Shown piece by piece: positions 8,706-28,742 of a stretch of 64,000 nt of DNA; position 1 is the first letter of the stretch; every line of letters starts with the position of its first letter. The position numbers and the translations under genes are program-made. Under the pieces are notes generated by a model. It made no database searches. It was given only the letters and a program-made list of their open reading frames with translations, and was not told the origin of the DNA. The stretch comes from Planctomycetota bacterium (lineage in GTDB: Bacteria; Planctomycetota; Phycisphaerae; WQYP01), in assembly GCA_021819825.1 (NCBI GenBank), contig JAKAEZ010000001.1, forward strand, positions 71,600 through 135,599, given 5' to 3'.

Positions 8706-9268
8706 AAAGATCGTCCTTTCCGCGCAAACTTTGCGCGACAACCAACCCGCGCTCCATCGCCGGTCATCTTCTCACGGCAGGGAACGCCATATATTCTTGC
8801 AGCTTGAATATCATTGTTGGGGGTGGTGAGTTAAAACGCAATAGGTGTTTCAGGTCTGCTTAGACCGATGCGCGATGCCAAGGGCGAGGCGCTGACAACC
8901 GCATTTCATCGCAGTTGATCGTATTGTCCGGCCGTCAGTGTAAATGCGCCAATGTGCCGCACCCTAGTGAATACTGGCTCATCATCGTGTTTGAGATTCC
9001 ACACCGGCTGGGCCAAAAAGAACGCGGTGGTTTGATACTCGCTGTACTTCTGATACGCGCCTAGGAATTTTACGGATAGCAGGACACGGAGAATTACCTA
9101 TTGGCAATACCGCATTTTTCTGACTATTGCGCACGGTTTGATTCCCGGCAGCAGGCCGCAGCGCGAACCGTAAGAGAATCCCCCATAGAGTTTTTGGTTA
9201 AATGACCTATATTCCATAGAGTGTTTGTCCTGATGATCAGCATTTCACCGGCACGATAAGATAGATAC

Positions 9269-11740
9269 ATGGAGAGGGAAGGCTGGGCCCGGCGGGTTGT
9301 GAACGAACCATCATTCATTCGCCGGGAGTTGGAATGCTCTGACGAGGTTTACGGCATGAACACGCTGTTAAATAACTCGACGATACAACGCCGCCGCTGG
9401 ATAGTCCGCGGTCAGGTGCAGGGCGTGGGATTCCGGCCGTACGTTTTCCGCCTGGCGCAGGAAGCCCACATCAGTGGTTTTGTGGCCAACGACAATCGGG
9501 GAGTGCTCATTGAAGGACAGGGGCCGAAAAGCAATCTTGATCATTTTCTGGAAACACTGAAAAGTAAACCTCCTCTCATGGCGCGAATTGACAGCATGAC
9601 CCAGGTAACCATTGCCCGAAGAGGGGAAGAACAGAATTTTTATATTATATCCAGTGAACGCCGCGGTTCGGGCCGGACAGATATCACCCCGGATACGGCA
9701 CTTTGCCCGCAATGTCGGCAGGAGATATTTGATCACACCAATCGCCGGTTTCATCATGGATTGGTCACTTGTACGAATTGCGGCCCGCGCTACAGCATCA
9801 TCCTTGATATCCCCTACGACCGCCCCGCCACGACCATGGCTGAATTTCCAATGTGCCCAAAGTGCCAAAAGGAATATGACGATCCCGCAAGTCGGCGTTT
9901 TCACGCACAACCGATTTCATGCCCGGATTGCGGGCCGCAAATTCAACTGGTCAATTCGCGTGGAGAAACCATGGATGGCGATCCAATCATTCAGGCGGCC
10001 GATATGCTGATGAACGGTGCGATCATAGCCATTAAGGGTATCGGCGGATTTCATCTAGCGGCTCGGGCGGATGATGAGGCCGCCGTAAGGCGGCTGCGGC
10101 AACTCAAGCAGCGCGACGCCAAGCCGTTTGCCATTATGTGCCGCTCGGTAAGTGATGCCCGACAATTTATCAAACTTAGCCCGGAAGTCCAAGGGGTCAT
10201 GGAATCGACGGTCGCTCCGATTATTCTGGCGATGCGTCAGGCCGATGCTCTGGTGGCTGAGGCGGTGGCAGGCAATAACTGTCGGCTGGGAGTCATGTTG
10301 CCGTATACACCTATCCACCATTTATTGTTCTCATACTTGGATAAGGACTTAGTAGCGCTGGTGATGACCAGCGGCAACATAACAGATGAGCCGTTGGCAA
10401 TAAGTAATTCCGAGGCCCTGAAGCGCCTGGGCGGATTGTGTGACGGATTTTTATGGCACAACCGCCCGATCGCCCGAAGTGTGGATGATTCCGTCCTTCT
10501 CGATATGGGGCCGGGCGGCCCTCCGGTCCCGATACGCCGGTCGCGCGGCATGGCACCATCGGCCATTGCGCTGACCGCCGGTGTGCCAGTCATGGGGCTA
10601 TGTCTGGGCGGAGAAATGAAAAATACGGTGGCAGTGGTAGCGGATTCTCAAGCGATATTAAGCCAGCATCTGGGGGATTTACATAATCAGTCGGCACGCC
10701 GGCAGTTTATTCAGACCATCGATGATTTATGCCGCCTTTACAAAGTCAGGCCGCAGTTCATCGCGCATGATCTGCACCCCATGTACCTTAGCGCGCAGTA
10801 TGCCACACAGCTAGCCAAGCGGTTTAGCGCGCCGCTCATTGCGGTTCAGCATCACCACGCGCATGCCGCGGCAGTGCTGGCCGAGCATGGCCTGGTTGGA
10901 CCGGTATTGGCATTTATTTGCGATGGAACCGGATTAGGTCCGGACGCAACCGCCTGGGGTTGCGAACTGCTGTGCGCAAGTAGTGAGACATTCCAGCGAA
11001 TCGCTTCGCTGAACCCGCTGTTATTACCCGGCGGTGACGTGGCTGCCCAGGACATTTCTCGCAGTGCTTTCGCGGTTCTTCATCAGACGTTTGGTGAGGA
11101 CTTTGATCAGCATCCGCTGGCGGCGCAACTTATTAAGAATTGTGATGACCGGCAAATGCTTAAGCTGATGATGACACGCAATCTTCATTGCGTCATATCC
11201 AGTAGTGCCGGGAGGCTCTTCGACGCTGTAGCCGCCCTGCTGGGCCTGTGTACTTACAACAGCTTTGAAGCGCAGGCCCCCATGGCACTGGAATCAGCGG
11301 CAGCCGGAGCACAAAGCCCACATCAATGCGCGAAACTGTGGGATTTTATCTACGATGACAACGGGCTGGAAAGACTTGATTTCCGGCCGCTGATTAAACA
11401 GTTGATTCAGCAACAGGACAATAATGTTCCGGTTGCCATGCTGGCGGCAGAGTTTCAACATCAATTTGCCGCCGGGTGGGCAGATATTATCACGCGAAAA
11501 GCGGTTGAAACAAATATCCACTTGGTCGCGCTGTCCGGCGGCGTTTTTGCTAATCAGTTGCTCACCGCTGATCTGTCGCATCAACTCCAGCGCCAGGGCT
11601 TGAGAGTACTGCGACACAAGAGTGTGCCGTGCAATGATGGCGGCCTGGCACTGGGACAGGCACTGGTTGCGGTAACACGTTGGAACAATGGATTGGACGG
11701 CAGAACAACATTGAAAACGGAGTGTGGAACATGTGCCTAG
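9269..11740 (+). CDS. hypF: [NiFe]-hydrogenase maturation carbamoyltransferase HypF
   Basis: Acylphosphatase domain (VRGQVQGVGFRPYV), two Zn-finger CxxC pairs (CPQCRQE…CTNCGPRY; CPKCQKE…CPDCGPQ), and YrdC plus Kae1-like domains. An alternative ATG lies at 9356. Confidence 0.95.
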   Translation: MEREGWARRVVNEPSFIRRELECSDEVYGMNTLLNNSTIQRRRWIVRGQVQGVGFRPYVFRLAQEAHISGFVANDNRGVLIEGQGPKSNLDHFLETLKSKPPLMARIDSMTQVTIARRGEEQNFYIISSERRGSGRTDITPDTALCPQCRQEIFDHTNRRFHHGLVTCTNCGPRYSIILDIPYDRPATTMAEFPMCPKCQKEYDDPASRRFHAQPISCPDCGPQIQLVNSRGETMDGDPIIQAADMLMNGAIIAIKGIGGFHLAARADDEAAVRRLRQLKQRDAKPFAIMCRSVSDARQFIKLSPEVQGVMESTVAPIILAMRQADALVAEAVAGNNCRLGVMLPYTPIHHLLFSYLDKDLVALVMTSGNITDEPLAISNSEALKRLGGLCDGFLWHNRPIARSVDDSVLLDMGPGGPPVPIRRSRGMAPSAIALTAGVPVMGLCLGGEMKNTVAVVADSQAILSQHLGDLHNQSARRQFIQTIDDLCRLYKVRPQFIAHDLHPMYLSAQYATQLAKRFSAPLIAVQHHHAHAAAVLAEHGLVGPVLAFICDGTGLGPDATAWGCELLCASSETFQRIASLNPLLLPGGDVAAQDISRSAFAVLHQTFGEDFDQHPLAAQLIKNCDDRQMLKLMMTRNLHCVISSSAGRLFDAVAALLGLCTYNSFEAQAPMALESAAAGAQSPHQCAKLWDFIYDDNGLERLDFRPLIKQLIQQQDNNVPVAMLAAEFQHQFAAGWADIITRKAVETNIHLVALSGGVFANQLLTADLSHQLQRQGLRVLRHKSVPCNDGGLALGQALVAVTRWNNGLDGRTTLKTECGTCA

Positions 11741-12021
11741 CAGTACCCGCAAAACTTATTGAGCAGGACGGCCACCACGGCGTGGTGGACCTGCATGGAA
11801 ATCGTCTGCCCGTGAACACAATGATGACACCCGACGCCCAGAGCGGCGACTGGATTTTAATTCACGCCGGATTTGCCATTGAACGCCTTGATCCGGAAGA
11901 AGCTCGCAAAACATGGACCTTGATTGCCGATGTGCAGCGCGCAGGCGGTGAACGCGCGGCGCAAGAACCGCCGCAAGGACGCTCGTTGGAACCATCGAAC
12001 ACGCCAGGAGGCCGGCTATGA
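11731..12021 (+). CDS. hypC: Hydrogenase maturation chaperone HypC/HupF
   Basis: Canonical MCLAVP N-terminus. The ATG at 11731 overlaps the hypF stop, and the stop is ATGA-coupled to hypD. The ORF-track start at 11680 was rejected. There is a ~25-aa C-terminal extension. Confidence 0.9.
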   Translation: MCLAVPAKLIEQDGHHGVVDLHGNRLPVNTMMTPDAQSGDWILIHAGFAIERLDPEEARKTWTLIADVQRAGGERAAQEPPQGRSLEPSNTPGGRL

Positions 12022-13154
12022 GTCTGACAGAACATGCCGTTGATGACCTGTTACATCGCCTTAACGTCGCGGCGAAAACGATTGGGCAGGACGTAGCCTT
12101 CATGGAAGTCTGCGGCACGCATACCACCAGTGCCTTTCGCTGCGGCTTGCCAAGCGTCATGCCCTCGAACGTGCGACTCATCAGCGGCCCGGGATGCCCC
12201 GTATGCGTAACATCGCAGGGTGATATTGAGCGGCTCATTGACCTGGGTTTACGGCAAGATGTTATTTTATGCACCTATGGTGATATGTTGCGTGTCCCAG
12301 GAAAACAGGGAACTCTGGAAGCCGCACGCGCCCGTGGCGGAAATATTGAGATTGTGTACAGCAGTATGGACGCGGTGAAGCTGGCACGCCGGAAACCGAG
12401 CCAGGAAGTGGTGTTTGCGGCCGTAGGGTTTGAAACCACTGCTCCCGCCACGGCAGCGGCGATCTGCGAGGCCCAGCGGCTTAATGTCAGTAATTTCAGC
12501 GTGCTGGCAAGTCACAAGCGGATTATACCCGCGATGCGAGCACTTTTAGCCGGTGGAGAAATTCCCGCGATAAAAGGGTTTCTCTGTCCCGGTCATGTGT
12601 CGGTGATTATCGGTTCGGAGGTCTATGCACCGATTGTCAAAGAATTCGGCGTATCGTGCGTGATTGGTGGTTTTGAACCGGCGCAGCTCATTGCGGCTCT
12701 GGTGTGCCTGACCGAGTTGGTTGTAAATAATAAAACCGCGCTGGTGAATCAGTACCCCGAAGCGGTGCATAAAAAAGGCAATCGCTGGGCGTTAGCCTTG
12801 CTGGAGCAGATTTTCGAGCCTGGGGATGCGCGATGGCGCGGCATGGGCACCATACCCGACAGCGGCTTGGTTCTGCGCCGTGAATATCAACGCTTTGATG
12901 CCGCATTACGGTTTAATCTCCCCGAACCACAGGAGCGCGAACCCAAGGGATGTATCTGCGGCAAAGTTATCAGCGGTGCGGCACTGCCCGTGCAATGTAA
13001 GCTCTTCGGAAAATCCTGCACTCCGATTTCCCCAATCGGGCCATGTATGGTCAGTTCCGAGGGGACTTGCTCGGCGTGGTTCAAATACGGGAATTTCAGG
13101 CAGGCGGCATTGCCCAGACGGCAAGCGAAAGAACTGCTCGAGGTGCAATCATGA
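12018..13154 (+). CDS. hypD: Hydrogenase maturation Fe-S protein HypD
   Basis: Motifs CGTHT, GPGCPVCVT, GFETTAP and CPGHVS. Length 378 aa. Confidence 0.95.
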   Translation: MSLTEHAVDDLLHRLNVAAKTIGQDVAFMEVCGTHTTSAFRCGLPSVMPSNVRLISGPGCPVCVTSQGDIERLIDLGLRQDVILCTYGDMLRVPGKQGTLEAARARGGNIEIVYSSMDAVKLARRKPSQEVVFAAVGFETTAPATAAAICEAQRLNVSNFSVLASHKRIIPAMRALLAGGEIPAIKGFLCPGHVSVIIGSEVYAPIVKEFGVSCVIGGFEPAQLIAALVCLTELVVNNKTALVNQYPEAVHKKGNRWALALLEQIFEPGDARWRGMGTIPDSGLVLRREYQRFDAALRFNLPEPQEREPKGCICGKVISGAALPVQCKLFGKSCTPISPIGPCMVSSEGTCSAWFKYGNFRQAALPRRQAKELLEVQS

Positions 13155-14206
13155 TTAAAACGCCATTACATAACGAATCCACACAGGCTCCCACGATGCC
13201 CGCACGGTTTACGCATGTGGCGTTGGCGCACGGCGGCGGCGGCCAATTGACGGATGTACTGCTTAACCAGATTGTCCTGCCACGACTAAGTAATCCGGCG
13301 CTATCGCAACTTCTGGACTCCGGCGTTGTCCCCGGGGGCAAGCTGGCCATGACCATAGACAGCTATGTTGTTCAACCGCTGTTTTTTCCGGGAGGTGATA
13401 TTGGCCGTTTGGCGGTAAGCGGGACCGTCAATGATTTAGCGGTATGCGGGGCCCACCCCAGAGCTTTGGCGCTGTCCATGATTCTGGCGGAAGGATTGGA
13501 ACGCAGCGTGCTGGAGCGCGTGCTGGACTCGGTCGCGGCAACCGCCGGCGAAGCGGGTGTACGCGTGATTACCGGTGATACCAAAGTGGTGGGACACGGA
13601 CAGGCCGACGGAATTTATCTGACCACCGCCGGAATCGGCGAATTATCCGACCAGCCGCTGCCCCACCCGGATCATGTGGAGCCTGGTGATGTGCTGATTA
13701 TCAACGGCCCGATCGCGGAACACGGATTGACAGTGATGCTGGCGCGTGAAATGCCGGAAGTGCGAAGCGTATTACGCAGCGATGCGGCCCCCCTTAACGG
13801 TTTGATAGAAACCTTGCGCCGGGCCGTTGCGGAAGTAGTGTTTATGCGTGATCCGACGCGTGGGGGTTTAGCGGGCCTGACCGCCGATCTCGCCGGGCGA
13901 ATCGGTTGGCGAATCAACCTGGAAGAATCACAGATTCCAGTAAACCCTGAAGCGAAACATGCGGCCGACATGCTGGGCCTGGACCCGCTGGAAATAGCCA
14001 ATGAGGGAAAAGTTTTGGTCGTCGTTCGGCCCGGCCAGGCGCAGGCGGCACTGGCGGCCATGCGACAGCATCCACTGGGAAAAGACGCGTGCATTATTGG
14101 ATCTGTCGCCCCGGAAAAAGATGGAATGTGCGCGCTGCACACATCCATCGGCGGATGGCGCATATTGCAGAAGCCTTATGGAGAACAATTACCGCGCATC
14201 TGCTAA
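13151..14206 (+). CDS. hypE: Hydrogenase maturation carbamoyl dehydratase HypE
   Basis: AIR-synthase-like PurM fold and C-terminal PRIC motif. Start placed at ATG 13151 (MIKTPLHNE…), overlapping the hypD stop. Confidence 0.95.
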   Translation: MIKTPLHNESTQAPTMPARFTHVALAHGGGGQLTDVLLNQIVLPRLSNPALSQLLDSGVVPGGKLAMTIDSYVVQPLFFPGGDIGRLAVSGTVNDLAVCGAHPRALALSMILAEGLERSVLERVLDSVAATAGEAGVRVITGDTKVVGHGQADGIYLTTAGIGELSDQPLPHPDHVEPGDVLIINGPIAEHGLTVMLAREMPEVRSVLRSDAAPLNGLIETLRRAVAEVVFMRDPTRGGLAGLTADLAGRIGWRINLEESQIPVNPEAKHAADMLGLDPLEIANEGKVLVVVRPGQAQAALAAMRQHPLGKDACIIGSVAPEKDGMCALHTSIGGWRILQKPYGEQLPRIC

Positions 14207-14245
14207 GCCCGCGCGGTATGTCACAGGTATTAAGGAGCTTTTACC

Positions 14246-14752
14246 ATGTCAACAGCCACGATTTTGTCCAAGCCTCCGACGGAGGATAAACGGTGGAAAA
14301 TCATTGAGACCACCATGCGACGCAATGATTTCCAACCCGACGCCCTGATTGAAAGCCTGCACAGCGTGCAGCAGACATTCGGGTTTCTGGATGTTCCATC
14401 CATGCGCTGGGTGGCCGGAGCGCTGAAAGTGCCGCTTTCCAAGGTTTACGGCGTGGCAACATTTTACCATTTTTTCACGCTTAAGCCGCAGGGTAAACAT
14501 GTGTGTGTCGTCTGCATGGGAACCGCCTGTTACATCAAAGGCGGGAAGCAACTCCTTGATGAGGTGCAGCGGCATTATGGCATTGCGGAAGGACAAACTA
14601 CCAAAGATGGGGAACTTTCACTGCTGGTGGCGCGGTGCATCGGTGCTTGCGGCCTGGCCCCGACGGCGGTGGTGGACGGACAGGTTTTGGGAAAGCGTTC
14701 GGCGACCGAACTTTTGGCGGCCGTGGATGACACTTTAGGAAGAAAGGCATAA
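14246..14752 (+). CDS. hoxE: Bidirectional hydrogenase diaphorase subunit HoxE (NuoE-like, [2Fe-2S])
   Basis: Thioredoxin-like 2Fe-2S cysteines (CMGTACYIKGG…ARCIGACGLAP) and RBS AAGGAG. Confidence 0.9.
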   Translation: MSTATILSKPPTEDKRWKIIETTMRRNDFQPDALIESLHSVQQTFGFLDVPSMRWVAGALKVPLSKVYGVATFYHFFTLKPQGKHVCVVCMGTACYIKGGKQLLDEVQRHYGIAEGQTTKDGELSLLVARCIGACGLAPTAVVDGQVLGKRSATELLAAVDDTLGRKA

Positions 14753-14754
14753 CC

Positions 14755-16407
14755 ATGAAACCCGAAGAATTAATGACAATGATGGAGAAGGCCCGCGCGG
14801 ACACGTTTGAGCACGAACTCCGTGTGTGTACCGAATCCGGATGTATGAGTCTGCAGAGCGATGTTCTGCAAAAAGCGCTAAGCGACGAGGTTAAACGCCG
14901 GGGAATATCGGATAAAGTATGTGTTAAAGGCGTCGGCTGCATGGGCCTATGCTGCAACGGCCCGTTGGTGAAAGCCGATAAGGCGATGTATCAGTTCGTG
15001 AAACCCGAACACGCCCCCGCCATTGTAGAGGCTCTGGCCACACAACCCATTAAAGAATTGCTATGTGATACGCAACAGCCGTTTTTCACCCGCCAAAAAT
15101 TGGTGGTACGCGAACATTTTGGAATTGTAGATCCGGAAAATCTCATGGACTGCATTGCCCATGGTGCCTATCAAGCATTGCTTAAAACCGTTACCACCAT
15201 GACTCCACCGCAGGTCATTCAGGAAATTTCTGATTCCGGGCTGCGCGGCCGGGGCGGTGCCGGCTTTCCAACGGGTTTGAAATGGGCCACGGTTTCAAAG
15301 GCCGGCGGGACCACCAAATATGTGATCTGCAATGGTGATGAAGGCGACCCAGGAGCGTTCATGGATCGCAGCGTGATGGAAGGCGATCCGCATCGAGTGC
15401 TGGAAGGCATGGCTATTGCCGCGTATGCCGTGGGAGCGGAAAACGGCGTGATATATGTCCGGGCGGAATATCCGCTGGCCGTGAAGCGCCTGACCAAAGC
15501 CATTAATCTGGCGCGGCGACATGAACTGATCGGCCACAATATCTTCGGCACAAAATTCAGCTTTAATGTTGAACTGCGCCTGGGTGCTGGGGCATTTGTC
15601 TGCGGCGAGGAAACGGCCCTGATTGCCAGCGTGGAAGGTAAGCGGGGCGTACCGCGTCCGCGCCCGCCTTATCCGGCCAACTATGGTCTATTTGGTTATC
15701 CCACGCTGATTAACAACGTCGAGACGTATGCCAACATCGCCCCGATTATCAATAAAGGGGCGGCCTGGTTTGCACAAATTGGAACTGAAAAAAGTAAAGG
15801 CACCAAGATATTCGCCTTAACCGGAAAGATCAAAAATACTGGTTTGATTGAAGTGCCCATGGGAATTGCACTTCGGGACATCATCTATGATATCGCCGGC
15901 GGTATTCCGGACGGCAAGGCCTTTAAAGCCGTGCAGACCGGCGGTCCTTCAGGCGGTTGTATTCCGGCGGATCTGCTGGATATTACCGTGGATTATGAAT
16001 CACTGGCCAAGGCCGGATCCATTATGGGATCGGGCGGCATGATTGTGATGGATGAAACCAGCAACATGGCCGATGTGGCGCGATTCTTTATGGAATTCTG
16101 CATGACTGAAAGTTGTGGCAAGTGCATACCGTGCCGGGTGGGCACGTATGAAATGCACGAACTCCTGGATCGAATATGTGAAAAACGCGGCACGCCGGAA
16201 GACTTGCAATTGCTGAAGGATTTGTGCGACATGGTCAAGCAAACCAGCTTGTGCGGGCTGGGCCAATCAGCGCCTAATCCGGTGCTTAGCACGCTGCGTT
16301 ATTTTGAGCAGGAATACCAAAACCTCATCGCAGAGGCACAAGCCGCGCGCGGACAGACGACCCATGCCGACACTAGTGAACACATTGAACTGGAGGTGCT
16401 CCCATGA
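14755..16407 (+). CDS. hoxF: Bidirectional hydrogenase diaphorase subunit HoxF (NuoF-like; NAD(H)/FMN, 4Fe-4S)
   Basis: Motifs GLRGRGGAGFPTGLKW, NGDEGDPGAF and ESCGKCIPCR. Starts 3 nt after hoxE. Confidence 0.95.
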   Translation: MKPEELMTMMEKARADTFEHELRVCTESGCMSLQSDVLQKALSDEVKRRGISDKVCVKGVGCMGLCCNGPLVKADKAMYQFVKPEHAPAIVEALATQPIKELLCDTQQPFFTRQKLVVREHFGIVDPENLMDCIAHGAYQALLKTVTTMTPPQVIQEISDSGLRGRGGAGFPTGLKWATVSKAGGTTKYVICNGDEGDPGAFMDRSVMEGDPHRVLEGMAIAAYAVGAENGVIYVRAEYPLAVKRLTKAINLARRHELIGHNIFGTKFSFNVELRLGAGAFVCGEETALIASVEGKRGVPRPRPPYPANYGLFGYPTLINNVETYANIAPIINKGAAWFAQIGTEKSKGTKIFALTGKIKNTGLIEVPMGIALRDIIYDIAGGIPDGKAFKAVQTGGPSGGCIPADLLDITVDYESLAKAGSIMGSGGMIVMDETSNMADVARFFMEFCMTESCGKCIPCRVGTYEMHELLDRICEKRGTPEDLQLLKDLCDMVKQTSLCGLGQSAPNPVLSTLRYFEQEYQNLIAEAQAARGQTTHADTSEHIELEVLP

Positions 16408-17132
16408 GTGCAGTTACTTCAACAACTCAATCCATTACGCTGACCATTGACGACAAAGCGATCAGTTGCCGTTCCGGCGAGACGATTCTGCAGGTAGCGC
16501 GGGAGAATAATATTGACATTCCCACACTGTGCTATCTGGAAGGATTGACGGTCTGGGGCGGTTGCCGACTATGCATGGTGGAAATCGCCGCGTCACCAAA
16601 ACTTCACGCGGCCTGCGCCACAGAATGTACCGAGGGTATGACCGTACGCACCACATCGCCGCGTTTGAAGCAGTACCGCAAGATGATTGTTGAAATGCTC
16701 TTTGCGGAACGGAATCATGTGTGCTCAGTGTGTGTGAGCAATGGGCACTGCGAATTACAAAATATGGCAACCAAGCTGGAAATCGATCATGTACGATTCC
16801 CTTATCGCTTCCCCCATCTGGCGGTGGATAATTCACACGATTATATGCGGCTGGATCACAATCGGTGCATTTTATGCCTGCGCTGTGTGCGCGTCTGCGG
16901 CGAGATCGAAGGGGCCCATACCAAAGATGTTAAAGGCCGGGGCGTGCTATCCGCGATTATCCATGATCTGGATGAACCTTGGGGCGATAGCCAGACCTGC
17001 ACGGGATGCGGTAAGTGTGTCAATGTATGTCCAACCGGCGCATTAACCCACCGTGGCACCGCCGTAGGCGAAATGACAAAGAAGACCGAGTTTTTACCTT
17101 ATCTAACCCTGATGCGGGAGGTTAAATTATGA
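16404..17132 (+). CDS. hoxU: Bidirectional hydrogenase diaphorase subunit HoxU (NuoG N-terminal-like Fe-S)
   Basis: 2Fe-2S ferredoxin motif (CRSGE…CYLEGLTVWGGCRLC) plus 4Fe-4S Cys clusters. ATGA overlap with hoxF. Confidence 0.9.
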   Translation: MSAVTSTTQSITLTIDDKAISCRSGETILQVARENNIDIPTLCYLEGLTVWGGCRLCMVEIAASPKLHAACATECTEGMTVRTTSPRLKQYRKMIVEMLFAERNHVCSVCVSNGHCELQNMATKLEIDHVRFPYRFPHLAVDNSHDYMRLDHNRCILCLRCVRVCGEIEGAHTKDVKGRGVLSAIIHDLDEPWGDSQTCTGCGKCVNVCPTGALTHRGTAVGEMTKKTEFLPYLTLMREVKL

Positions 17133-17707
17133 CCACGACAACAACTGCAACAACAACCAGGCCAACGGTCGCAACCGTCTGGCTGGACGGCTGCTCGGGG
17201 TGTCACATGAGCCTGATGGACCTTGATGAGCGGCTTATTACCTTGGCCGGACTGGTGGATATATTACATTCACCGGTCGTGGATCCTAAGGAATTTCCGC
17301 AAAGCGTGGATGTAACATTGGTGGAAGGGGCGGTCAGCAGTGAAGAAGATTTGCACAAAGCCAATGTCATCCGCGCACATAGCAAATTCGTCATAGCTTT
17401 GGGGGACTGCGCGGTCACCGGTAATGTTCCCGCGATGCGCAATTATTGGGACCGCTCGGACTTGTTTGACCGGGCTTATGTGGAAAATGCCCAGGAGCCG
17501 CCCACAGCCGAAGAACGCAAAGTCATCCTTCCGCTGACCGTTGTACCGCCCTTGCGTCCGCTCGCCACACCCCTGCACGAGGTAATCAAGGTGGACCTGT
17601 ATCTGCCGGGTTGCCCGCCGCCCGCGGATGCGATCTGGTTTGTGCTGACGGAATTTCTGGCGGGACGCGTGCCCAACGCCATGAGCGTTTCGCGCTTTGG
17701 AAAATGA
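17129..17707 (+). CDS. hoxY: [NiFe]-hydrogenase small subunit HoxY (cytoplasmic, no Tat signal)
   Basis: NuoB-like fold with Cys motifs GCSGCH, GDCAVTGN and LPGCPP. ATGA overlap with hoxU. Confidence 0.9.
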   Translation: MTTTTTATTTRPTVATVWLDGCSGCHMSLMDLDERLITLAGLVDILHSPVVDPKEFPQSVDVTLVEGAVSSEEDLHKANVIRAHSKFVIALGDCAVTGNVPAMRNYWDRSDLFDRAYVENAQEPPTAEERKVILPLTVVPPLRPLATPLHEVIKVDLYLPGCPPPADAIWFVLTEFLAGRVPNAMSVSRFGK

Positions 17708-17751
17708 ATTGTGCCCGGAGGCCATGGTGCTTAACAAAAAAGGATTTTATC

Positions 17752-19182
17752 ATGACACGAACCATTACCATTGACGGTGTTACCCGCATAGAAGGACATG
17801 CCAAAATAACTATTCACCTTGACGAATCCGGCAAGGTGTGCGATGCGCAATTTCATGTGACGCAGTTTCGCGGATTTGAAAAATTTGTGGAAGGCAGACC
17901 CCTTACTGAAATGCCCGGCATTATGGCGCGTATCTGCGGGATATGTCCCGTAAGCCATCTGATGGCGGCAGCCAAGGCCTGCGATGATATTCTGGCAGTT
18001 GACATTCCACCTACCGCGGACAAACTCCGTCGCATCATGAATCTTGCGCAGATGGTGCAGAGTCATGCTCTGTCTTTTTTTCATCTTTCCAGCCCCGATC
18101 TGCTGTTCGGGATGGACGGTGATCCGCTGCGGCGCAACATTTTTGGATTGATCCGCGAGCACCCGGATTTTGCACGTGATGGAATTCTGCTGCGCAAATT
18201 TGGGCAGGATGTTATCGCCCTGCTGGGCGGGAAGAAAATACATCCGGCGTGGGTAGTTCCGGGGGGCGTTAATGCCCCGCTGACGGAGGACAAACGCGAT
18301 GCGATTCTCAAAGAGATTCCGGCGGCCATGGCGCGGGTAAATCGCGCGTTGGATTATTTTCATCAGGTGGAAAATCGTTATCCGGCGGAAGTAGATGCAT
18401 TTGCGAATTTTCCGACGCATTTTGCCGGGCTTGTAAATCCTGAAGGTCTGCTGGAGCACTATGACGGAGCCATGAAATTCGTGGACCACCAAGGTTTCCC
18501 GATTGCGGAACTGGGGCGCAACGATCAGCGGCACTATGGAGCGCTCATTGGCGAGGCCGTTGAGAAATATTCGTATCTCAAGTTCCCTTATTTCAAGCCC
18601 CAAGGATACCCCGCAGGCATATATCGCGTCGGTCCGCTGGCCCGCCTGATCGTGGCGGAACGCTGCGGTACAGTGAACGCGGATAAGGAATTAGGTGTGT
18701 TTCGCACGCGCCTGGGGCGGGCGCCACAAAGCAGTTTCCATTACCACTGGGCCAGACTCATTGAAATTCTTTACGGCATTGAAATGATTCAGCGCCTGCT
18801 GCAATTTCCCGACATTCTCAACACTCATATCCGATCACGCGCTCGGCCCAATCGGCTTGAAGGCGTGGGTATATCAGAGGCACCGCGCGGCACGCTGATT
18901 CATCACTACAAAATTGATGAAAACGGTCTGATCCGCTGGGCCAATTTGATTATCGCAACCGGTCACAATAACCTGGCGATGAATCTGGGCGTGCGACAGG
19001 TTGCCGAAAGATTTGTGGACGCCGAGCATCTAAGCGAAGGCATGCTTAACAGAGTCGAAGCTGTTATCCGCTGTTTCGATCCTTGCCTGAGTTGCTCGAC
19101 GCATGCCCTGGGACAGATGCCATTGCGGATTGAGCTGTGTCGCGCTGACGGCGAGGTGTGCGATGTACTGCAACGAGATTAA
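17752..19182 (+). CDS. hoxH: [NiFe]-hydrogenase large subunit HoxH
   Basis: N-terminal [10 protein letters not shown] and C-terminal DPCLSCSTH motifs, plus a ~24-aa cleavable tail. Start placed at ATG 17752 ([19 protein letters not shown]); the track start at 17611 was rejected. Confidence 0.95.
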
Positions 19183-19711
19183 TGCGACGATCCCCCCGGT
19201 TGAAACACTGGTTATCGGCTATGGCAATACCTTGCGTGCTGATGACGGTGCCGGACCGGCGGTTATCGAGAAACTGACATCAATTCTGCCTCGGCGACTT
19301 GCGCAGAAGGTTCAACTGCTTTCCTGCGGACAACTGACACCGGAGCTCGCAGTGGATATCGCTCCATGCCAAAGGATTATTTTTATTGATGCCAGTATGG
19401 CGCTTCCAGCGGGGAGTATCTCCATAAACCCGGTTCAGGAAGAATGCGGTGCGGTGCTCATGGGGCACTATTCCACACCGGGAACCGTGCTGGCAATGGC
19501 ACGAAGCGCGTTCGGCGCACACCCCCATGCCTGGGTGGCGGCGATCGGATGTCAAAGCGTAGAAATAAGCGATAAATTAACGCCTAGGGTGGCCACTGCT
19601 GTTGACCGCCTCGCAAGGCACGTGTACCACGCAATAGCACGATGGAGCAAGGGACAAACATTCCTGCCGGAAATGCTGCCGAATTCGGAACCGGCACTCA
19701 AGGCAATTTGA
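19163..19711 (+). CDS. hoxW: Hydrogenase maturation endopeptidase HoxW (HybD/HyaD family)
   Basis: LVIGYGNTLRADDGAGPAV motif. The start is uncertain (19103 or 19163); both overlap the 3' end of hoxH. Confidence 0.8.
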   Translation: MYCNEINATIPPVETLVIGYGNTLRADDGAGPAVIEKLTSILPRRLAQKVQLLSCGQLTPELAVDIAPCQRIIFIDASMALPAGSISINPVQEECGAVLMGHYSTPGTVLAMARSAFGAHPHAWVAAIGCQSVEISDKLTPRVATAVDRLARHVYHAIARWSKGQTFLPEMLPNSEPALKAI

Positions 19712-19730
19712 AGATTATGAAAGGACTGAT

Positions 19731-22700
19731 TATGAATACCAAACAGCATCTAACCATTGATGGCAACGAGGCGGCGGCAAGCGTGGCCTATCGGACCAGT
19801 GACACCGCCGTGATTTATCCGATTACCCCGTCAAGTCCCATGGGCGAATTTTTTGACGACTGGTCATCACGCGGCCAGAAAAATATTTGGGGCGATGTGC
19901 CGCAGGTTGTGGAAATGCAAAGTGAAGGCGGTGCCATCGGCGCGGTCCACGGCGCTTTGCAAGCGGGAGCAATGTGTACCACTGGCACCTCTTCGCAAGG
20001 CTTGCTGCTGATGATTCCAAATCTTTACAAGATTGCCGGCGAACTTACGAGCTTTGTCATTCAAGTGGCAGCGCGTTCTCTGGCCACCCATGCGTTGTCC
20101 ATCTTTGGGGATCACTCGGACGTCATGGCTTGCCGACAAACCGGATTTGCCATGTTGGCCTCCATGAATACCCAAGAAGCCCACGATCAAGCGGCTATTG
20201 CGCTGGCCGCCAGTTTGCGCAGCAGAATTCCGTTTATTCATTTTTTTGACGGTTTTCGCACCTCGCATGAGCTTAATGGCGTCGACATGCTTACCGACGA
20301 TCAGTTGCGTACGCTGATTCCCCAGGCATGGGTCACGGCCCATCGTCAGCGTGCGCTAACGCCAGATGCTCCCGTGTTGCGCGGTACAGCTCAAAATCCC
20401 GATACTTTTTTTCAGGCACGGGAAGCCGCAAATTCCTTTTATGATGCGCTGCCGCAAATTGTCCTTGAAGAAATGCGGCGTTTTACCGAATTGACCGGCC
20501 GGATTTATCAGCCGTATGAATATCGCGGCCATCCGCAGGCCACGCGTGTGATCATCATTATGGGTTCCGGCGCTGAAACTACCAGCGAAACCGTGCGACA
20601 CCTGGTGGAAAAAGGGGAACGAATTGGCTGCATCATCGTGCGACTGTACCGTCCTTTTGCCGCCGATATGCTGGTCAGTGCCATCCCCACCACGGCCCGA
20701 AACATTGCGGTCATGGATCGCTCCAAAGAGCCGGGCTCCGCGGGAGAACCGCTGTATCTGGATGTTGTGACAGCTTTGGCCCAGGCAATGATGGTGCGTG
20801 CATTGCCCATGGGAGAAATGCCGCTGGTGATCGGTGGACGTTACGGCCTATCAAGCAAAGAATTCACGCCCGCGATGGTCAAGGCGGTATTTGATGAGTT
20901 GGGTAAATCTAATCCCAAACCGCGCTTTACCGTAGGAATTAATGACGATGTCACCCACCTGTCAATAATGGTGGACCACAGTTTTGATCTGCCCATGGGT
21001 GATATGGTGCAGGCATTGTTCTACGGCCTGGGGGCCGACGGGACCGTCGGTGCCAACAAGAATTCCATCAAAATTATCGGCGATCAGACGAATCTGCACG
21101 CCCAGGGCTATTTTGTTTACGATTCGAAGAAATCAGGGGCTATGACGATCTCGCATTTGCGATTCGGCCATGAGCCGATCCGTGCGCCCTATCTGATCCG
21201 CAAAGCCAATTTTGTTGCGTGCCATCAATTTGAATTTCTCGAACGCATGGACGTTCTGGAGATGGCTGCGCCGGGATCGGTTTTTCTACTCAACGCGCCA
21301 CTGGACCGTGAAAAGGTCTGGGATCATCTTCCGGTAGAAATTCAGCGGACGATCATTGAGAAACGTCTCAAGTTCTTCGCGATAGATGCCAATAAAGTGG
21401 CACGGAATACCGGTATGGGCCGGCGCATCAATACGATTATGCAGACCGCGTTTTTTGCCATATCGGGAGTTTTACCGCGCGATTCGGCGATTACCGCAAT
21501 TAAAAAGGCAATCAAAAAGACTTATGAAAAACGCGGCGATGAGATTGTCCAACGCAATTATGAGGCGGTCGACCAAACCTTGGCGAATCTGCATGAAATA
21601 CCCGTTCCCGCCACCGCAACTTCCACCATTCGACAGGAAAGCTTTGCCCAGTCGGCCATGCCTGATTTCACCCGTCGCGTACAGGCGGTGATGATGGCCG
21701 GAAAGGGCGACTTGTTACCGGTTAGTGCGTTTCCGGTGGATGGCACGTGGCCGACCGGCACGACCAAGTGGGAAAAACGCAATATTGCTGTAAGTATTCC
21801 GGAATGGGACCAGCAGTTCTGCATTCAATGCAACAAGTGTGCTTTTGTCTGTCCGCACGCCGCCATACGAGCCAAAATTTATGATCAATGCGACTTGGCT
21901 GGCGCTCCGACGTCATTCAAACACGTGGCCTACAAAGCTCCGGACTTTAAGGGCATGATGTATACGCTGCAGGTGGCTCCGGAAGACTGCACGGGATGTG
22001 GATTATGCGTGGAGGTTTGCCCGGCGAAAGACAAAGCCAATCCGAAGCATAAAGCCATTAACATGGCCCCGCAAATCAGCATTCGCGAGCGGGAACGCGA
22101 AAACTTCAATTTTTTCCTCAATATCCCGGAGTTGGATCGATCGCGCATCACACGCCTGGATGCCAAAGCCAGTCAATTTCTGCTTCCGCTATTCGAATTC
22201 AGCGGAGCCTGTGCGGGCTGTGGAGAAACACCCTATATTAAACTGCTGACCCAGTTGTTCGGAGATCGGCTGATTATCGCCAATGCGACGGGCTGTTCCT
22301 CGATCTACGGCGGCAATCTCCCCACAACACCGTACACAACCAACCGCGACGGGCGCGGGCCGGCGTGGAATAATTCCCTGTTTGAAGATAATGCAGAATT
22401 CGGCTTGGGGATGCGATTAGCTCTGGACCAGCACATTCGCCAGGCGCAGCGTCTGGTAAAACAACTCGCCGGCCGTATTGGCGATACGCTAAGTACCGCA
22501 CTTCTCGAAGCAGATCAATCGTCGGAAAAAGGAATTGCCGAGCAGCGCAATCGCGTGTTGGAATTACGAAAGCGTCTGGTGGATATCAAAGAACCCGAAT
22601 CCACGGTTCTGGGACAAGTCGCTGATTATCTGGTACGCAAAAGCGTGTGGATTCTCGGCGGCGATGGATGGGCGTATGACATTGATTTTGGCGGCTTGGA

Positions 22701-23343
22701 CCATGTATTAAGCCTGCTTTTTGATGTCAATGTTCTGGTGCTGGACACGGAAGTATATTCCAACACCGGCGGTCAAAGTTCCAAGAGCACGCCGATTGGC
22801 GCTGTGGCTAAATTTGCCGCCGCCGGAAAAAGCACCCAGAAAAAAGATCTCGGACTGATGGCGATGAGTTATCGCCATGCGTATGTCGCCAGCATCGCGT
22901 TTGGTGCTAATGACAATCACACCGTTCGAGTCTTCAATGAAGCGGCGGCCTATCCCGGCCCGTCTTTAATAATTGCTTACAGCCACTGCATCGCGCATGG
23001 GTATGATCTCACATACGGCATCAACCAGCAGAAATTGGCGGTGGATAGCGGCGTGTGGCCATTGTATCACTACGATCCGCGACTCATTACGGAAGGCAAG
23101 CCGCCTTTGCAAATTGATTCACCAAAACAGAAAGCCAATGTACGCGATTACATGCGTAATGAAACGCGGTTTTCCATGATCGAAAAAATTAATCCCGAAA
23201 GATTCCGCATGCTTTCGGAAGCCTCCGTGCGGAATACCGCCGAGCGACTGGCACTGTATACACAATTGGCGGGGTTTGCCTTTCCGGAAACTCAGGCTCC
23301 GAGTCAAAGCGAACCGACCACCACCACTGCAAAAGGAGAATAA
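19731..23343 (+). CDS. nifJ: Pyruvate:ferredoxin (flavodoxin) oxidoreductase, single-polypeptide PFOR/NifJ
   Basis: Length ~1200 aa with an N-terminal MNTKQHLTIDGNEAAASVAYRTSD, two ferredoxin-type CxxCxxCxxxCP motifs (CIQCNKCAFVCP; CTGCGLCVEVCP) and a TPP domain (GGDGWAYDIDFGG). ATG at 19731 with RBS AGGA. Confidence 0.95.
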
Positions 23344-23347
23344 TACT

Positions 23348-24370
23348 ATGGATATGTCTACCAACTATATGGGCTTTGATCTTCCTCACCCGCTGATACC
23401 GGGAGCTTCGCCGATGGCCAATGACATTGACACGGTCCGACGTCTGGAGGATGCCGGCGCTCCGATGATTATCATGCCTTCGATTTTTGAAGAGCAGTTA
23501 GTTCAGGAGGAAATCTTTGTAGATTGGGCGCTTACGCAAGGGGACGAAAACTCCGGCGAAGCGTCGGGGTATTTGACAACACCGTATAATTTCCGGCTCG
23601 GCCCCGATGCCTATCTTAAACAGTTGCAGAAAATAAAATCTGTTGTGCGCGTCCCGGTTATCGCCTCACTCAACGGCCGCACGCTGGGCGGATGGACCTC
23701 TTACGCCAAGCAGTTGCAGCAAGCAGGTGCCGACGGTATCGAGTTAAATCTTTACGATTTAGCCTTGACTGCGTTTCGTGACTCCACGGATGTTGAACGC
23801 GACATGCTGGCGATCATACGGGACGTGCGCAAGGTGGTAACGCTTCCATTGGCGGTGAAGCTCTCCGGCTTTTACACATCCCCGGTGCACTTTGTCGCGC
23901 AGGCCGCAAAAGCCGGAGCGGGAAGTGTTGTGATCTTTAACCGCTTTTACCAAGCGGATATTGATATTGACAATCTGACGATAAAACGCGAACTCAAGTT
24001 ATCCACATCGGATGAACTTTTGCCGCGCCTGCGCTGGGCGGCGGCCATCAGCGGGCAGGTGGATTGCCAGTTGGCTATCACCGGCGGCGTCCAAAATGCG
24101 CGCGATGCCGTCAAATGTCTTATGGTCGGCGCTGATGCCGTACAGGTCGTTTCCGCGCTTCTGGAGTATGGTCCGGATCACCTGAAGGTGCTGCGGGACG
24201 CTTTGGCGGAGTGGCTGCGGGCCAATGAATATTTGTCGGTTAAGCAAATGAAGGGGTCCATGAGTATGGCGCGATCCCCGGAGCCGGAATTGTTCGAACG
24301 CGGCAATTACATTCGCATTCTCCAGGGATGGAAAAAAATGGAAAGCGGTATGGAGTTATTCTGGAGCTAA
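23348..24370 (+). CDS. Dihydroorotate-dehydrogenase-like (class 1 PyrD/DPD-like TIM-barrel flavoprotein) family protein
   Basis: DHOD-like TIM-barrel signatures (…PVIASLNG…, LAVKLSGFY, ITGGVQNARDA). Sits 5 nt after nifJ with RBS AAGGAG. Confidence 0.7.
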   Translation: MDMSTNYMGFDLPHPLIPGASPMANDIDTVRRLEDAGAPMIIMPSIFEEQLVQEEIFVDWALTQGDENSGEASGYLTTPYNFRLGPDAYLKQLQKIKSVVRVPVIASLNGRTLGGWTSYAKQLQQAGADGIELNLYDLALTAFRDSTDVERDMLAIIRDVRKVVTLPLAVKLSGFYTSPVHFVAQAAKAGAGSVVIFNRFYQADIDIDNLTIKRELKLSTSDELLPRLRWAAAISGQVDCQLAITGGVQNARDAVKCLMVGADAVQVVSALLEYGPDHLKVLRDALAEWLRANEYLSVKQMKGSMSMARSPEPELFERGNYIRILQGWKKMESGMELFWS

Positions 24371-24373
24371 GTC

Positions 24374-24808
24374 ATGCATGAAGTTTCGATTGCGGAATCG
24401 TTGATCGCGTTAATCCGGCGGCACATGCCGACAAACGGGAAGCTGATCCGGGCCACCGTGCGTATCGGCCCCATGCACGGCGTGGTGTCGGAGGCCATGG
24501 GGATGGCGTGGAATATCGCCAGCTCGGAAGCGGGCTGGCCCGCAGCGCAACTGAACATTATAACTCCGCCCTGGCGCTTACGATGCGTGTCATGTGGACG
24601 GTGCTGGGCACCTGCAACGGTTGATGAACATTGCGTCTGTGGTTTCACGAAGGCTGATATTATGGGCGGCGATGAATTTCAGTTGGATTCCATCGAAGTG
24701 GACTGTCCGGTAAAACATTCTAAGCGAAGGTCCACGGCTGGTGTCCGTGCACGCGGCAGAACCCTCAAAAAAGGAGTTAACCATGAGCACCAAAGTTCCA
24801 ATTGTTGA
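24374..24808 (+). CDS. hypA: Hydrogenase nickel-insertion metallochaperone HypA, with a C-terminal extension
   Basis: MHEVSIAESL N-terminus and a Zn site (CVSCGRCW…CVCG). About 30 extra residues follow the usual end, and the 3' end overlaps hypB. Confidence 0.85.
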   Translation: MHEVSIAESLIALIRRHMPTNGKLIRATVRIGPMHGVVSEAMGMAWNIASSEAGWPAAQLNIITPPWRLRCVSCGRCWAPATVDEHCVCGFTKADIMGGDEFQLDSIEVDCPVKHSKRRSTAGVRARGRTLKKGVNHEHQSSNC

Positions 24809-25457
24809 AAATGTTCTTAAACTCAACGATGAAATGGCGATTCAGAATCAGCGATTATTTCAACAGACCGGCGTATTTGTGGTGGATTTAATCGGTGCGC
24901 CCGGCGCGGGAAAAACAGCCTTGTTGGAGCTTACGCTCCGTCAACTCAAGGGTGTTTTGGACATCGGTGTGATCGTCGGTGATCCGGCAACCTGCCGCGA
25001 TGGAGACCGTCTGGCCAAGCATTCGGAGCATATCGTACAGGTCAATACCGGAAGCGGATGCCACCTTGATGCCAATCAGATCCGCCATGCCATGAATAAG
25101 CTTAAACTTGCCGATCTCGATTTGCTTATTATCGAAAATGTTGGCAATCTGATCTGCCCGGTCTCATTTAATCTTGGTCAGAACTGCAAAGTCGGCATGT
25201 TTAGTGTCAGTGAAGGCGACGATAAAGCCGCCAAGCATCCGAATCTGGTCGTATCGGCGGATGCGCTAATTCTTAATAAAATTGATCTATTGCCCTATAT
25301 TCCCTTTGATCTCGAATGCTTCCGTCAGGATGTGGCACATCTTAATCGAACCGCCCCCCTGCTGGAAATTTCCGTTGCCCGCAATCAGGCCAAAGCCTGG
25401 CTGGACTGGCTGACAGAAAACGCAAAACGGCCGGAGCACCTTACGAAGTCCAATTGA
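24783..25457 (+). CDS. hypB: Hydrogenase nickel-incorporation GTPase HypB
   Basis: P-loop GAPGAGKT and a CH…GSGCH metal-binding region. ATG at 24783 with RBS AAGGAG; the track start at 24741 was rejected. Confidence 0.9.
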   Translation: MSTKVPIVENVLKLNDEMAIQNQRLFQQTGVFVVDLIGAPGAGKTALLELTLRQLKGVLDIGVIVGDPATCRDGDRLAKHSEHIVQVNTGSGCHLDANQIRHAMNKLKLADLDLLIIENVGNLICPVSFNLGQNCKVGMFSVSEGDDKAAKHPNLVVSADALILNKIDLLPYIPFDLECFRQDVAHLNRTAPLLEISVARNQAKAWLDWLTENAKRPEHLTKSN

Positions 25458-25512
25458 GCCGACCAGGCATAAATGAGAGGCGAAACATAAGGTCGGATTT
25501 CATAAGAGCTTT

Positions 25513-26886: not shown

Positions 26887-27006
26887 AACTTGGCGATGGG
26901 GTAAGAATTTGGCCGTTGCGGCGATGATCGATACAGGTAAATAGGAACTTATCACAAGGTGCTCCCGTGGCTAGAGGTTTAAGTAAACGACAGGCAGGCT
27001 TTGAGA

Positions 27007-27300
27007 TCACTGCGACTTGCGCTTCTTAAACATCTTGAGCATACGATCGGTCATTAAAAAGCCCCCCACCACATTGATCATTGAGGCCGTCACCGCAATG
27101 GTCCCCAACACCACGACCATAGTGGTGTTGTGTCCCGCACCGGTCACCGCAATGGCTCCGACCACCGAGATCGCCGAAATCGCATTGGTCAGCGACATCA
27201 GGGGAGTGTGGAGTTGGGGCGAAACGCGGCGCACCACTTCATAGCCCAAAAACGCCGCCAGCGCAAAGACAAACAAATTGGATTCCAACGATGGATTCAT
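27007..27300 (-). CDS. pntAB: NAD(P) transhydrogenase alpha subunit, membrane part 2 (PntAB)
   Basis: A ~97-aa protein made of three TMs ([23 protein letters not shown]…), lying between pntAA and pntB. The split-alpha arrangement is known from Rhodospirillum. Confidence 0.8.
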
Positions 27301-27390
27301 ACAAGGTTCTCCAACAAAGCAATCATTGCCTATTTTACCGACCGGCTCCGGCGGCTTTGTGTGCCGCACGCTTAGTTCCGGTCCGAGCGT

Positions 27391-28581: not shown

Positions 28582-28742
28582 AACAGGACTTCCATATCTA
28601 CAAAGATATAATGATCCCGGTTCGGAATTTTTGCAAGTCAGTACATAGGATCGCCTCAATAGAAGCCTGTCCAAGTAACGCCGGTCGACGGGATGGCCGT
28701 AATTCATTCAATGCGGCGGCACTGAGAGGCCGGCAGATCGGC

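Follow-up and report, generated by a model that had tools for sequence, protein, structure and literature searches.

Why should a gene for pyruvate:ferredoxin oxidoreductase (PFOR) lie in the midst of the genes for a [NiFe]-hydrogenase and its maturation proteins? The locus that raises this question is in a 64,000-nucleotide stretch of DNA from a bacterium of the Phycisphaerae (Planctomycetota; contig JAKAEZ010000001.1, positions 71,600 to 135,599). The whole of this stretch is referred to here as the window, and coordinates are those of the window unless another locus is named. Fourteen consecutive open reading frames (ORFs) on the + strand, spanning 9269-25457 in the ORF map and identified with Pfam and NCBIfam, occur in the order hypF-hypC-hypD-hypE-hoxE-hoxF-hoxU-hoxY-hoxH-hoxW-nifJ-(DHOD-like)-hypA-hypB, where nifJ encodes PFOR and the gene after it encodes a protein resembling dihydroorotate dehydrogenase (DHOD). 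We interpret the cluster, with a probability of about 0.6, as a fermentative hydrogen module of this Phycisphaerae bacterium, in which the Hox enzyme would confurcate electrons from NADH and reduced ferredoxin to H2.

Gene organisation and hydrogenase class

Gene starts were picked from ribosome-binding sites and domain boundaries, and the resulting protein lengths, including the 794 residues of HypF, are the same as those that were called independently for a contig, 99% identical, of a metagenome-assembled genome (MAG) at NCBI. The genes are tightly packed. Seven of the junctions are overlaps, four of them of the ATGA type (hypC/hypD, hypD/hypE, hoxF/hoxU and hoxU/hoxY) and three longer (10 nt for hypF/hypC, 20 nt for hoxH/hoxW and 26 nt for hypA/hypB). 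The gaps measure 39 nt (hypE-hoxE), 2 nt (hoxE-hoxF), 44 nt (hoxY-hoxH, the largest), 20 nt or possibly 5 nt (hoxW-nifJ), 4 nt (nifJ-DHOD-like) and 3 nt (DHOD-like-hypA), and the G+C content at third codon positions is uniform over the cluster genes. An initial annotation, made by a model from the sequence, had listed these 14 genes in this order and on this strand, separated by gaps of 0-45 nt and several ATGA overlaps. All 14 were found, with Pfam or NCBIfam matches above curated cut-offs, and the description of the junctions agrees with ours. Most of the gene extents could also be kept, with three adjustments: the likelier start of hypF is 9356, hoxW begins at 19163, where hoxH has not yet ended, and the nifJ start is at 19732 or 19717. 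The 14 genes are functionally related and co-directional, so that chance can be excluded as the cause of the clustering, and their order is conserved in other genomes (see below).

The spacing suggests that the genes are co-transcribed, with translational coupling at the overlaps, in which case the enzyme, its maturases and its electron source would appear together. A sigma-70 scan of the cluster gave 12 promoter-like sites, compared with 15.4 +/- 4.2 in shuffled sequences, and an intrinsic-terminator scan gave 22 sites, compared with 19.5 +/- 4.9; these scans may not fit planctomycete signals, and counts at the level of the shuffles speak neither for a single transcript nor against it. A promoter or terminator separating nifJ from the hox genes had been named in the initial annotation as an observation that would count against its reading. 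The hoxW-nifJ junction contains no intrinsic terminator and has no room for one, its 20-nt spacer being without predicted structure; the cluster-wide scans are uninformative. A hairpin at 25436-25530, after hypB, was considered as a terminator and is not convincing (z = -0.59). Comparison of the region upstream of hypF with that of a relative sharing 79% HoxH identity gave no conserved DNA blocks, and no regulator site can be proposed from it. An Rfam search of the whole window at gathering cut-offs gave no RNA families, and neither the cluster nor the nickel permease gene nicO has a riboswitch upstream of it. A repeat search inside the cluster returned just short matches at chance level. The Shine-Dalgarno contexts of hoxH, the DHOD-like gene and hypB (17735-17755, 23330-23350 and 24766-24786) are strong and very much alike, reading CAAAAAAGGA..ATG or CAAAAGGAG..ATG.

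The Hyp maturation set is complete, with HypA, B, C, D, E and F all above Pfam or NCBIfam cut-offs; in HypF the Pfam domains Acylphosphatase, zf-HYPF, Sua5/YrdC, HypF_C and HypF_C_2 each exceed theirs. HoxE and HoxU pass equivalog models, and HoxF, HoxY and HoxH pass Pfam cut-offs only, with no NCBIfam model at cut-off. The large subunit, HoxH, has an N-terminal L1 ligand motif of the RxCGxCxxxH type and a C-terminal L2 motif, DPCLSCSTH, followed by a 25-residue tail that is presumably the extension cleaved by HoxW. Its identity is 56-57% with the HoxH that Acaryochloris marina carries on a plasmid and 43.6% with HoxH of the soluble hydrogenase (SH) of Cupriavidus necator, and its best homologues are in MAGs of Phycisphaerae and other Planctomycetota. 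Searched against the PDB, HoxH scored 512 bits with the bifurcating NiFe-HydL of Acetomicrobium mobile, 419 with HoxH of the Hydrogenophilus thermoluteolus SH (5xf9_D), 380 with MvhA (group 3c) and about 110 with Frh (3a) and sulfhydrogenase (3b). HoxY has exactly four cysteines, at 22, 25, 94 and 162; a short group 3d small subunit with four cysteines carries the proximal [4Fe-4S] cluster only. The NuoE/F/G-like diaphorase HoxEFU is encoded together with HoxYH. The HoxH similarity, the four cysteines of HoxY and the equivalog matches of HoxE and HoxU place the enzyme with the group 3d [NiFe]-hydrogenases of the HoxEFUYH type, and not with groups 3a, 3b, 3c or 1, 2 and 4, an assignment of HoxH made from identities and PDB scores. 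The initial annotation had likewise expected HoxH in group 3d, and nothing in these comparisons puts it outside group 3.

As A. mobile HydL was the best PDB match of HoxH, membership of the Bfu-type (HydABC) family was also considered. The A. mobile NiFe-HydABCSL complex (7t2r/7t30) is the closest solved structure for HoxH and for HoxU (220 bits), and for HoxF (640 bits) it is within 0.3 bits of the closest. HoxF has the flavin-site motifs AFM and GGPSG in common with this complex and the FeFe HydABC/Bfu family, which use NADH and ferredoxin together, as is proposed here for Hox. However, HoxF (550 aa) is without the C-terminal ferredoxin-like 2x[4Fe-4S] domain of HydB, of about 60-80 residues: its alignment to HydB chains (584-630 aa) stops at about residue 527 of 550, and there is no cysteine past residue 500. 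HoxU (242 aa) is without the long C-terminal part of A. mobile HydA (692 aa), aligning to just residues 3-213 of it, and is the same length as H. thermoluteolus HoxU. With the HydB and HydA extensions both absent, the Bfu-type assignment was rejected. The SH of C. necator and H. thermoluteolus, HoxFUYH(I), is likewise of group 3d and also joins a HoxFU diaphorase to HoxYH. It differs in being O2-tolerant, in serving aerobic H2 oxidation, and in having neither HoxE nor a link to PFOR, whereas the cluster in the window has both HoxE and PFOR.

The PFOR itself is of the full-length single-chain type. Its match to TIGR02176 covers 2-1166 of the 1167 model positions and takes in all domains, the 2x[4Fe-4S] and thiamine pyrophosphate domains among them, and it aligns over residues 8-1180 with the Moorella thermoacetica PFOR structure 6cin (1343 bits).

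Recurrence of PFOR and its flavoprotein partner at hox loci

The order hypF(C)DE-hoxEFUYHW-nifJ-DHOD-like-(hypC)hypAB is found in relatives with 99, 79, 74, 73 (L086; L numbers are our labels for individual loci) and 70% HoxH identity, and a Logan contig carries an identical DHOD-like protein with the same neighbours. In another 74% relative (L003) the hyp-hox-hypCAB genes are contiguous, and genes for an ADP-forming acetyl-CoA synthetase and PFOR are found 2-6 kb downstream. The synthetase gene lies between hypB and the PFOR gene (15280-18021 of that locus), a position that fits the conversion of pyruvate through acetyl-CoA to acetate and ATP. L003 also has a HupE/UreJ nickel transporter gene (5831-6427) inserted between hypE and hoxE.

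Beyond these relatives, PFOR and DHOD-like genes occur beside hox in a variety of other arrangements. Planctomycetes bacterium Pan216, a Trueperaceae MAG and L092 have them directly upstream of hoxE. In L108 they diverge from hoxE, and in L095, L150, L155, L165 and an Opitutaceae MAG they are convergent after hoxW. In L141 (12299-20444) they lie downstream of hoxEFUYHW-hypF, with hypC on one side and hypD on the other; on the evidence of gene order, the same two-gene module entered a hyp cluster here in a separate event. A HoxH-centred scan found the pair in 9 of 80 metagenomic hox loci, and in 4 of the 26 whose non-hox flank measured 8 kb or more; by chance, one would expect to meet a single-copy gene within 10 kb in well under 1% of cases. 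The linkage of PFOR to hox thus appears to be favoured and repeatedly selected, though not obligatory. That it exists in at least five other arrangements, across several phyla, argues for a functional coupling of PFOR and Hox. On some of the metagenomic contigs (L128, L099, L094, L101 and L107), two or three hoxEFU(YH) paralogue sets adjoin one another in tandem or divergent orientation.

The DHOD-like gene had been left as an unexplained insert in the initial annotation. A genome scan with the family profile gave at least 590 loci; 80 of these were kept, and 65 had enough upstream DNA. In 64 of the 65, nifJ is directly upstream of the DHOD-like gene and shares its strand, the distance being about 100 nt or less as a rule. 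These loci span Acidobacteriota, Verrucomicrobiota (including Akkermansia), Cyanobacteria, Planctomycetota, Gemmatimonadota, Chloroflexota, Propionibacteriaceae and others. The gene is therefore a near-universal downstream partner of nifJ, which suggests that nifJ and DHOD-like joined the hyp-hox cluster as a single pre-existing unit. The pair in the window, with its short same-strand junction, is typical of the nifJ + DHOD-like module (NF005741/PRK07565). The module usually stands alone, whereas here it is embedded in hyp-hox. In Propionibacterium, DHOD-like and GltD-like genes flank PFOR, and an Nfn-like role has been postulated (PMC7650540). The window, by contrast, has no GltD-like gene beside the pair; a GltD-like partner was not recurrent among the 80 genome loci and was dropped as a general feature, and no other third gene recurred beside nifJ and DHOD-like in this set.

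An AlphaFold (AF2) model of the DHOD-like protein had a predicted local distance difference test (pLDDT) score of 79. The top Foldseek matches of this model were the flavin mononucleotide (FMN) domain of dihydropyrimidine dehydrogenase and class-1 DHODs, with E values of 1e-15 to 1e-13 and about 20% identity. In a profile alignment to Lactococcus lactis DHODB, the FMN-binding lysine (KLSP) and the GGV phosphate loop are retained. The DHODB segment ELNISCPN, however, aligns with ELNiYeLA in the family and ELNLYDLA in the window protein, so that the catalytic cysteine (or serine) and the second asparagine are absent. The family has no conserved cysteine, and the two cysteines of the window protein are not conserved ones. 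A true class-1 DHOD was rejected on these grounds, the catalytic N-x-S-C-P-N loop being replaced by N(I/L)Y-x-LA, and the protein was filed as DHOD-like (NF005741). Judged by these residues and by its gene neighbourhood, the protein is a flavoprotein tied to PFOR and not a pyrimidine enzyme, and it would serve PFOR rather than Hox specifically. A homologue in Synechocystis, sll0744, annotated 'DHOD (fumarate)', belongs to the nifJ transcription unit (PMC11368403); our literature search found no functional work on this partner. The hosts of DHOD-like genes are mostly aerobic or facultative (Acidobacteriota, Verrucomicrobiota, Cyanobacteria and Planctomycetota), and one may speculate from these lifestyles that the protein has a role for PFOR in O2-exposed cells.

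Proposed electron flow between PFOR and Hox

In the mechanism that we propose, PFOR would oxidise pyruvate under anoxia to acetyl-CoA and CO2, reducing a soluble ferredoxin or flavodoxin encoded elsewhere, and glycolysis would supply NADH. Within HoxEFU, NADH would enter at the HoxF flavin, and the low-potential electrons would enter through a branch of [2Fe-2S] clusters in HoxE and HoxF. HoxYH would then release H2, the overall confurcation being NADH + 2 reduced ferredoxin -> 2 H2, and the outcome would be formation of acetate and ATP with full redox balance. The Hyp proteins and HoxW would mature the hydrogenase, and nifJ and the DHOD-like gene would already have been a two-gene unit before their entry into the hyp-hox cluster.

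Experimental precedent is described in a preprint of June 2026 (10.64898/2026.06.25.734504). According to this source, purified Synechocystis HoxEFUYH makes H2 only from NADH and reduced ferredoxin together, and catalyses the reverse bifurcation too; the HoxF flavin is the branch point, and the [2Fe-2S] clusters of HoxE (E1) and HoxF (F2) form the low-potential branch. The preprint notes that the 2 NADH from glycolysis and 4 reduced ferredoxins from PFOR per glucose exactly fit the stoichiometry of confurcation. The same text links confurcation to flavin-site signature motifs in HoxF, namely AFM, GGPSG and a 'single phenylalanine' motif, and states that the conformational gating proposed for HydABC cannot apply to Hox. 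HoxE is needed for the reaction with ferredoxin (PMC11647496).

The HoxF of the window has both of the checkable motifs among these three, AFM at 201-203 (within DPGAFMDR, 198-205) and GGPSG at 396-400. The low-potential [2Fe-2S] branch is also present. HoxF has an N-terminal [2Fe-2S] domain (PF01257, residues 19-94) with cysteines at 25, 30, 62 and 66, and HoxE matches PF01257 with 143 bits and has cysteines at 87/90, 95, 131 and 135. As Synechocystis Hox needs NADH and reduced ferredoxin together, confurcation is likelier here than a route leading from ferredoxin through Hox to H2 or NAD(H). It was the latter, running from pyruvate through ferredoxin or flavodoxin to Hox, that the initial annotation had proposed as 'hard-wired'. 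Its link between PFOR and Hox is borne out by synteny and by the cyanobacterial literature, whereas confurcation is the likelier reaction, and 'hard-wired' is too strong a word: neither the cluster nor the window encodes a ferredoxin or flavodoxin, and any physical tie between PFOR and Hox would be hypothetical.

Nor is the association of PFOR with Hox new. According to Barz et al. 2010 (PMC2974642), nifJ is present in every cyanobacterium that carries hox, and in some cases the two are clustered. A PFOR ORF is directly upstream of hoxE in Lyngbya (PMC2674450), and in Arthrospira and Synechococcus WH 5701, too, nifJ has been described beside hox or hyp genes; in some strains it adjoins hoxE or is within the hyp cluster. 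A plasmid of Acaryochloris carries hox, hyp and PFOR genes as a proposed fermentative module (PMC8949462). The cyanobacterial HoxEFUYH system resembles that of the window in its five subunits, in its HoxE and HoxU, which belong to the same equivalog families, in the level of HoxH identity given above for Acaryochloris, in maturation by HoxW and HypA-F, in PFOR as fermentative electron source and in a nifJ operon with a 'DHOD' gene. It differs in that the host here is a non-photosynthetic planctomycete and the window has no plant-type ferredoxin. Moreover, hox, hyp and nifJ are dispersed in Synechocystis PCC 6803, whereas here they form 14 contiguous, co-directional genes with nifJ and DHOD-like between hoxW and hypA. 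A literature search on hydrogenase and PFOR in Phycisphaerae found nothing relevant.

Hox and PFOR are both reversible enzymes, and the gene cluster is silent on direction. Hox could therefore work in uptake, bifurcating the electrons of H2 to NAD+ and ferredoxin, with PFOR reversed as a pyruvate synthase and carbon assimilated in H2-rich anoxic habitats. The adjoining pntAB genes could then pass NADH on to NADPH for biosynthesis, and H2-driven reduction of NAD+ and ferredoxin by Hox is described in the preprint (10.64898/2026.06.25.734504). We nevertheless regard this direction as rather unlikely: relatives tie the cluster to ADP-forming acetyl-CoA synthetase and sugar-degrading genes, as in fermentation, the window contains no CO2-fixation genes, and the documented role of PFOR and Hox in cyanobacteria is fermentative H2 release (PMC2974642; also the discussion in the preprint). 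A different view would be that the genes share no more than their regulation. Hox, Hyp and PFOR are all O2-sensitive, Fe-S-rich and anoxia-induced, and they might share a promoter without PFOR being the specific electron source of Hox. The absence of PFOR near most hox loci and of a carrier gene in the cluster would agree with this, as would the situation in Synechocystis, where the hox and nifJ operons are separate yet belong to the same SigE/cyAbrB2 regulon (PMC11368403). It is distinctly unlikely, however, given that the linkage arose in at least five gene orders, in Planctomycetota, Deinococcota, Verrucomicrobiota and Cyanobacteria, that the loci examined show no recurrent recruitment of other anoxia-induced Fe-S enzymes to hox, and that a Synechocystis PFOR knockout makes less fermentative H2 (cited in 10.64898/2026.06.25.734504).

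The DHOD-like protein could also be the electron link itself, its FMN taking electrons from PFOR and delivering them to the [2Fe-2S] branch of HoxE and HoxF with no need of soluble ferredoxin. This would explain why the window is without a ferredoxin or flavodoxin gene, and it draws further on the near-constant position of the gene directly after nifJ, on its company with PFOR in all hox-linked loci, and on the retention of FMN-binding residues together with the loss of the DHOD catalytic cysteine. However, the FMN of a DHOD fold normally has a far higher potential than ferredoxin, the protein has no Fe-S cluster, and about 90% of nifJ/DHOD-like pairs have no hox nearby, making the role PFOR-centred. 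Synechocystis Hox, moreover, works with the plant-type ferredoxin Fdx1 (10.64898/2026.06.25.734504). The proposal in this form is very improbable. A wider version, which we put forward as a long shot, would make the DHOD-like protein an obligate and hitherto unrecognised partner of NifJ-type PFOR, acting in electron exit or entry or in a protective or regulatory role. In hox-linked clusters it would couple the low-potential [2Fe-2S] branch of HoxEFU with PFOR, giving a ferredoxin-independent, pyruvate-to-H2 confurcating complex.

The reading that we prefer, of a fermentative module with a confurcating Hox, has several points against it. The confurcation step draws on a single unreviewed preprint and on an enzyme of the 56%-identical class, and two of the three motifs were checked. 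Sequence does not tell which way the electrons flow, and it is we who infer the fermentative direction. About 85% of hox loci have no PFOR nearby, and in one close relative PFOR is 6 kb away. Co-transcription is deduced from spacing. Finally, a six-frame motif search of the window gave no ORF for a ferredoxin (4Fe-4S or plant-type 2Fe-2S) or flavodoxin beyond the domains in HoxU and PFOR, so the soluble carrier would have to be encoded elsewhere.

Neighbouring genes and implications

Coordinates and family matches of the cluster genes, the region upstream of them and the nickel permease gene are collected in Table 1.

Table 1. Features of the hyp-hox-nifJ locus, in window coordinates. Paired bit scores are match and model cut-off.
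Feature	Position	Strand	Size and evidence
NicO/HoxN-family nickel permease	5001..6065	-	PF03824, 223 bits; 21 nt downstream of H+-pyrophosphatase gene
Divergent intergenic region, H+-pyrophosphatase gene (minus)/hypF	8742..9355	.	Presumed cluster promoter region; ORF map
hypF, carbamoyltransferase (CN-ligand synthesis)	9356..11740	+	794 aa; alternative start 9269
hypC, maturation chaperone	11731..12021	+	96 aa; N-terminus MCLAVP; PF01455, 83 bits
hypD	12018..13154	+	PF01924, 462 bits
hypE	13151..14206	+	351 aa; AIRS and AIRS_C domains
hoxE, [2Fe-2S] diaphorase subunit	14246..14752	+	NF005747 HoxE equivalog, 231 vs cut-off 224 bits
hoxF, FMN/NADH-binding subunit	14755..16407	+	Complex1_51K, NADH_4Fe-4S, N-terminal 2Fe-2S_thioredx (Pfam)
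hoxU, Fe-S diaphorase subunit	16404..17132	+	242 aa; NF005745 HoxU equivalog, 373 vs 333 bits
hoxY, hydrogenase small subunit	17129..17707	+	192 aa; PF01058 (Oxidored_q6), 101 bits
hoxH, [NiFe] large subunit	17752..19182	+	476 aa; NiFeSe_Hases (Pfam)
hoxW, C-terminal maturation endopeptidase	19163..19711	+	182 aa, GYGNTLRADDGAG motif; TIGR00072, 75 vs 47 bits
nifJ, single-chain pyruvate:ferredoxin (flavodoxin) oxidoreductase	19732..23343	+	1203 aa; TIGR02176, 1730 vs 911 bits
DHOD-like FMN TIM-barrel protein	23348..24370	+	340 aa; NF005741, 386 vs 303 bits
hypA, nickel metallochaperone	24374..24808	+	144 aa; PF01155, 71 bits
hypB, nickel-inserting GTPase	24783..25457	+	224 aa; TIGR00073, 225 vs 121 bits

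A HoxN nickel permease had been placed 3 kb upstream of the cluster in the initial annotation, and a gene of the NicO/HoxN family is indeed present, on the minus strand and 3.2 kb away. It is probably outside the hyp-hox transcript and co-transcribed instead with the H+-pyrophosphatase gene hppA (5001-8741, minus strand). A divergent hppA is kept in the 79% and 99% relatives (L084 and L166). On the other side, the transhydrogenase genes pntB, pntA-alpha2 and pntA-alpha1 (25513-28707, minus strand) converge on hypB across a 55-nt gap. This adjacency is absent in L166 and L084. In the contig of the 99%-HoxH MAG (L166), hypB is followed by two unannotated minus-strand ORFs (17749-20050) and not by pntB, and synteny ends exactly at the cluster end. 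In Synechocystis entering microoxia, hox, the nifJ operon with its 'DHOD' gene and pntB are induced together (PMC11368403). An ORF at 25454-25810 (+) has no family matches and is antisense to pntB, and was treated as spurious. The remainder of the window is housekeeping in character (AddAB, homoserine dehydrogenase, phosphoglycerate mutase and others). A gene unrelated to the cluster, at 51289-55245 (minus strand), encodes a protein of 1318 aa that has an FtsK/SpoIIIE ATPase domain and matches NACHT weakly.

What is new in this locus is the phylum of the host, the fact that the array of 14 genes is complete and runs in one direction, and the movement of nifJ and DHOD-like as a unit into hox loci in many configurations. 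The module of PFOR and Hox for fermentative H2 production, known from cyanobacteria, would thereby be extended to Planctomycetota, and Deinococcota and Verrucomicrobiota have relatives of it. Repeated recruitment of PFOR, in varied gene orders, would provide independent comparative-genomic support for a need of Hox for PFOR-derived reduced ferredoxin, and so bears on the confurcation model. The more open question is that of the uncharacterised DHOD-like flavoprotein, found beside nifJ in many phyla and in model organisms that include Synechocystis (sll0744), Akkermansia and Propionibacterium, and we regard it as the most promising lead. As for the organisms themselves, these Phycisphaerae are likely to be H2 producers in anoxic niches.

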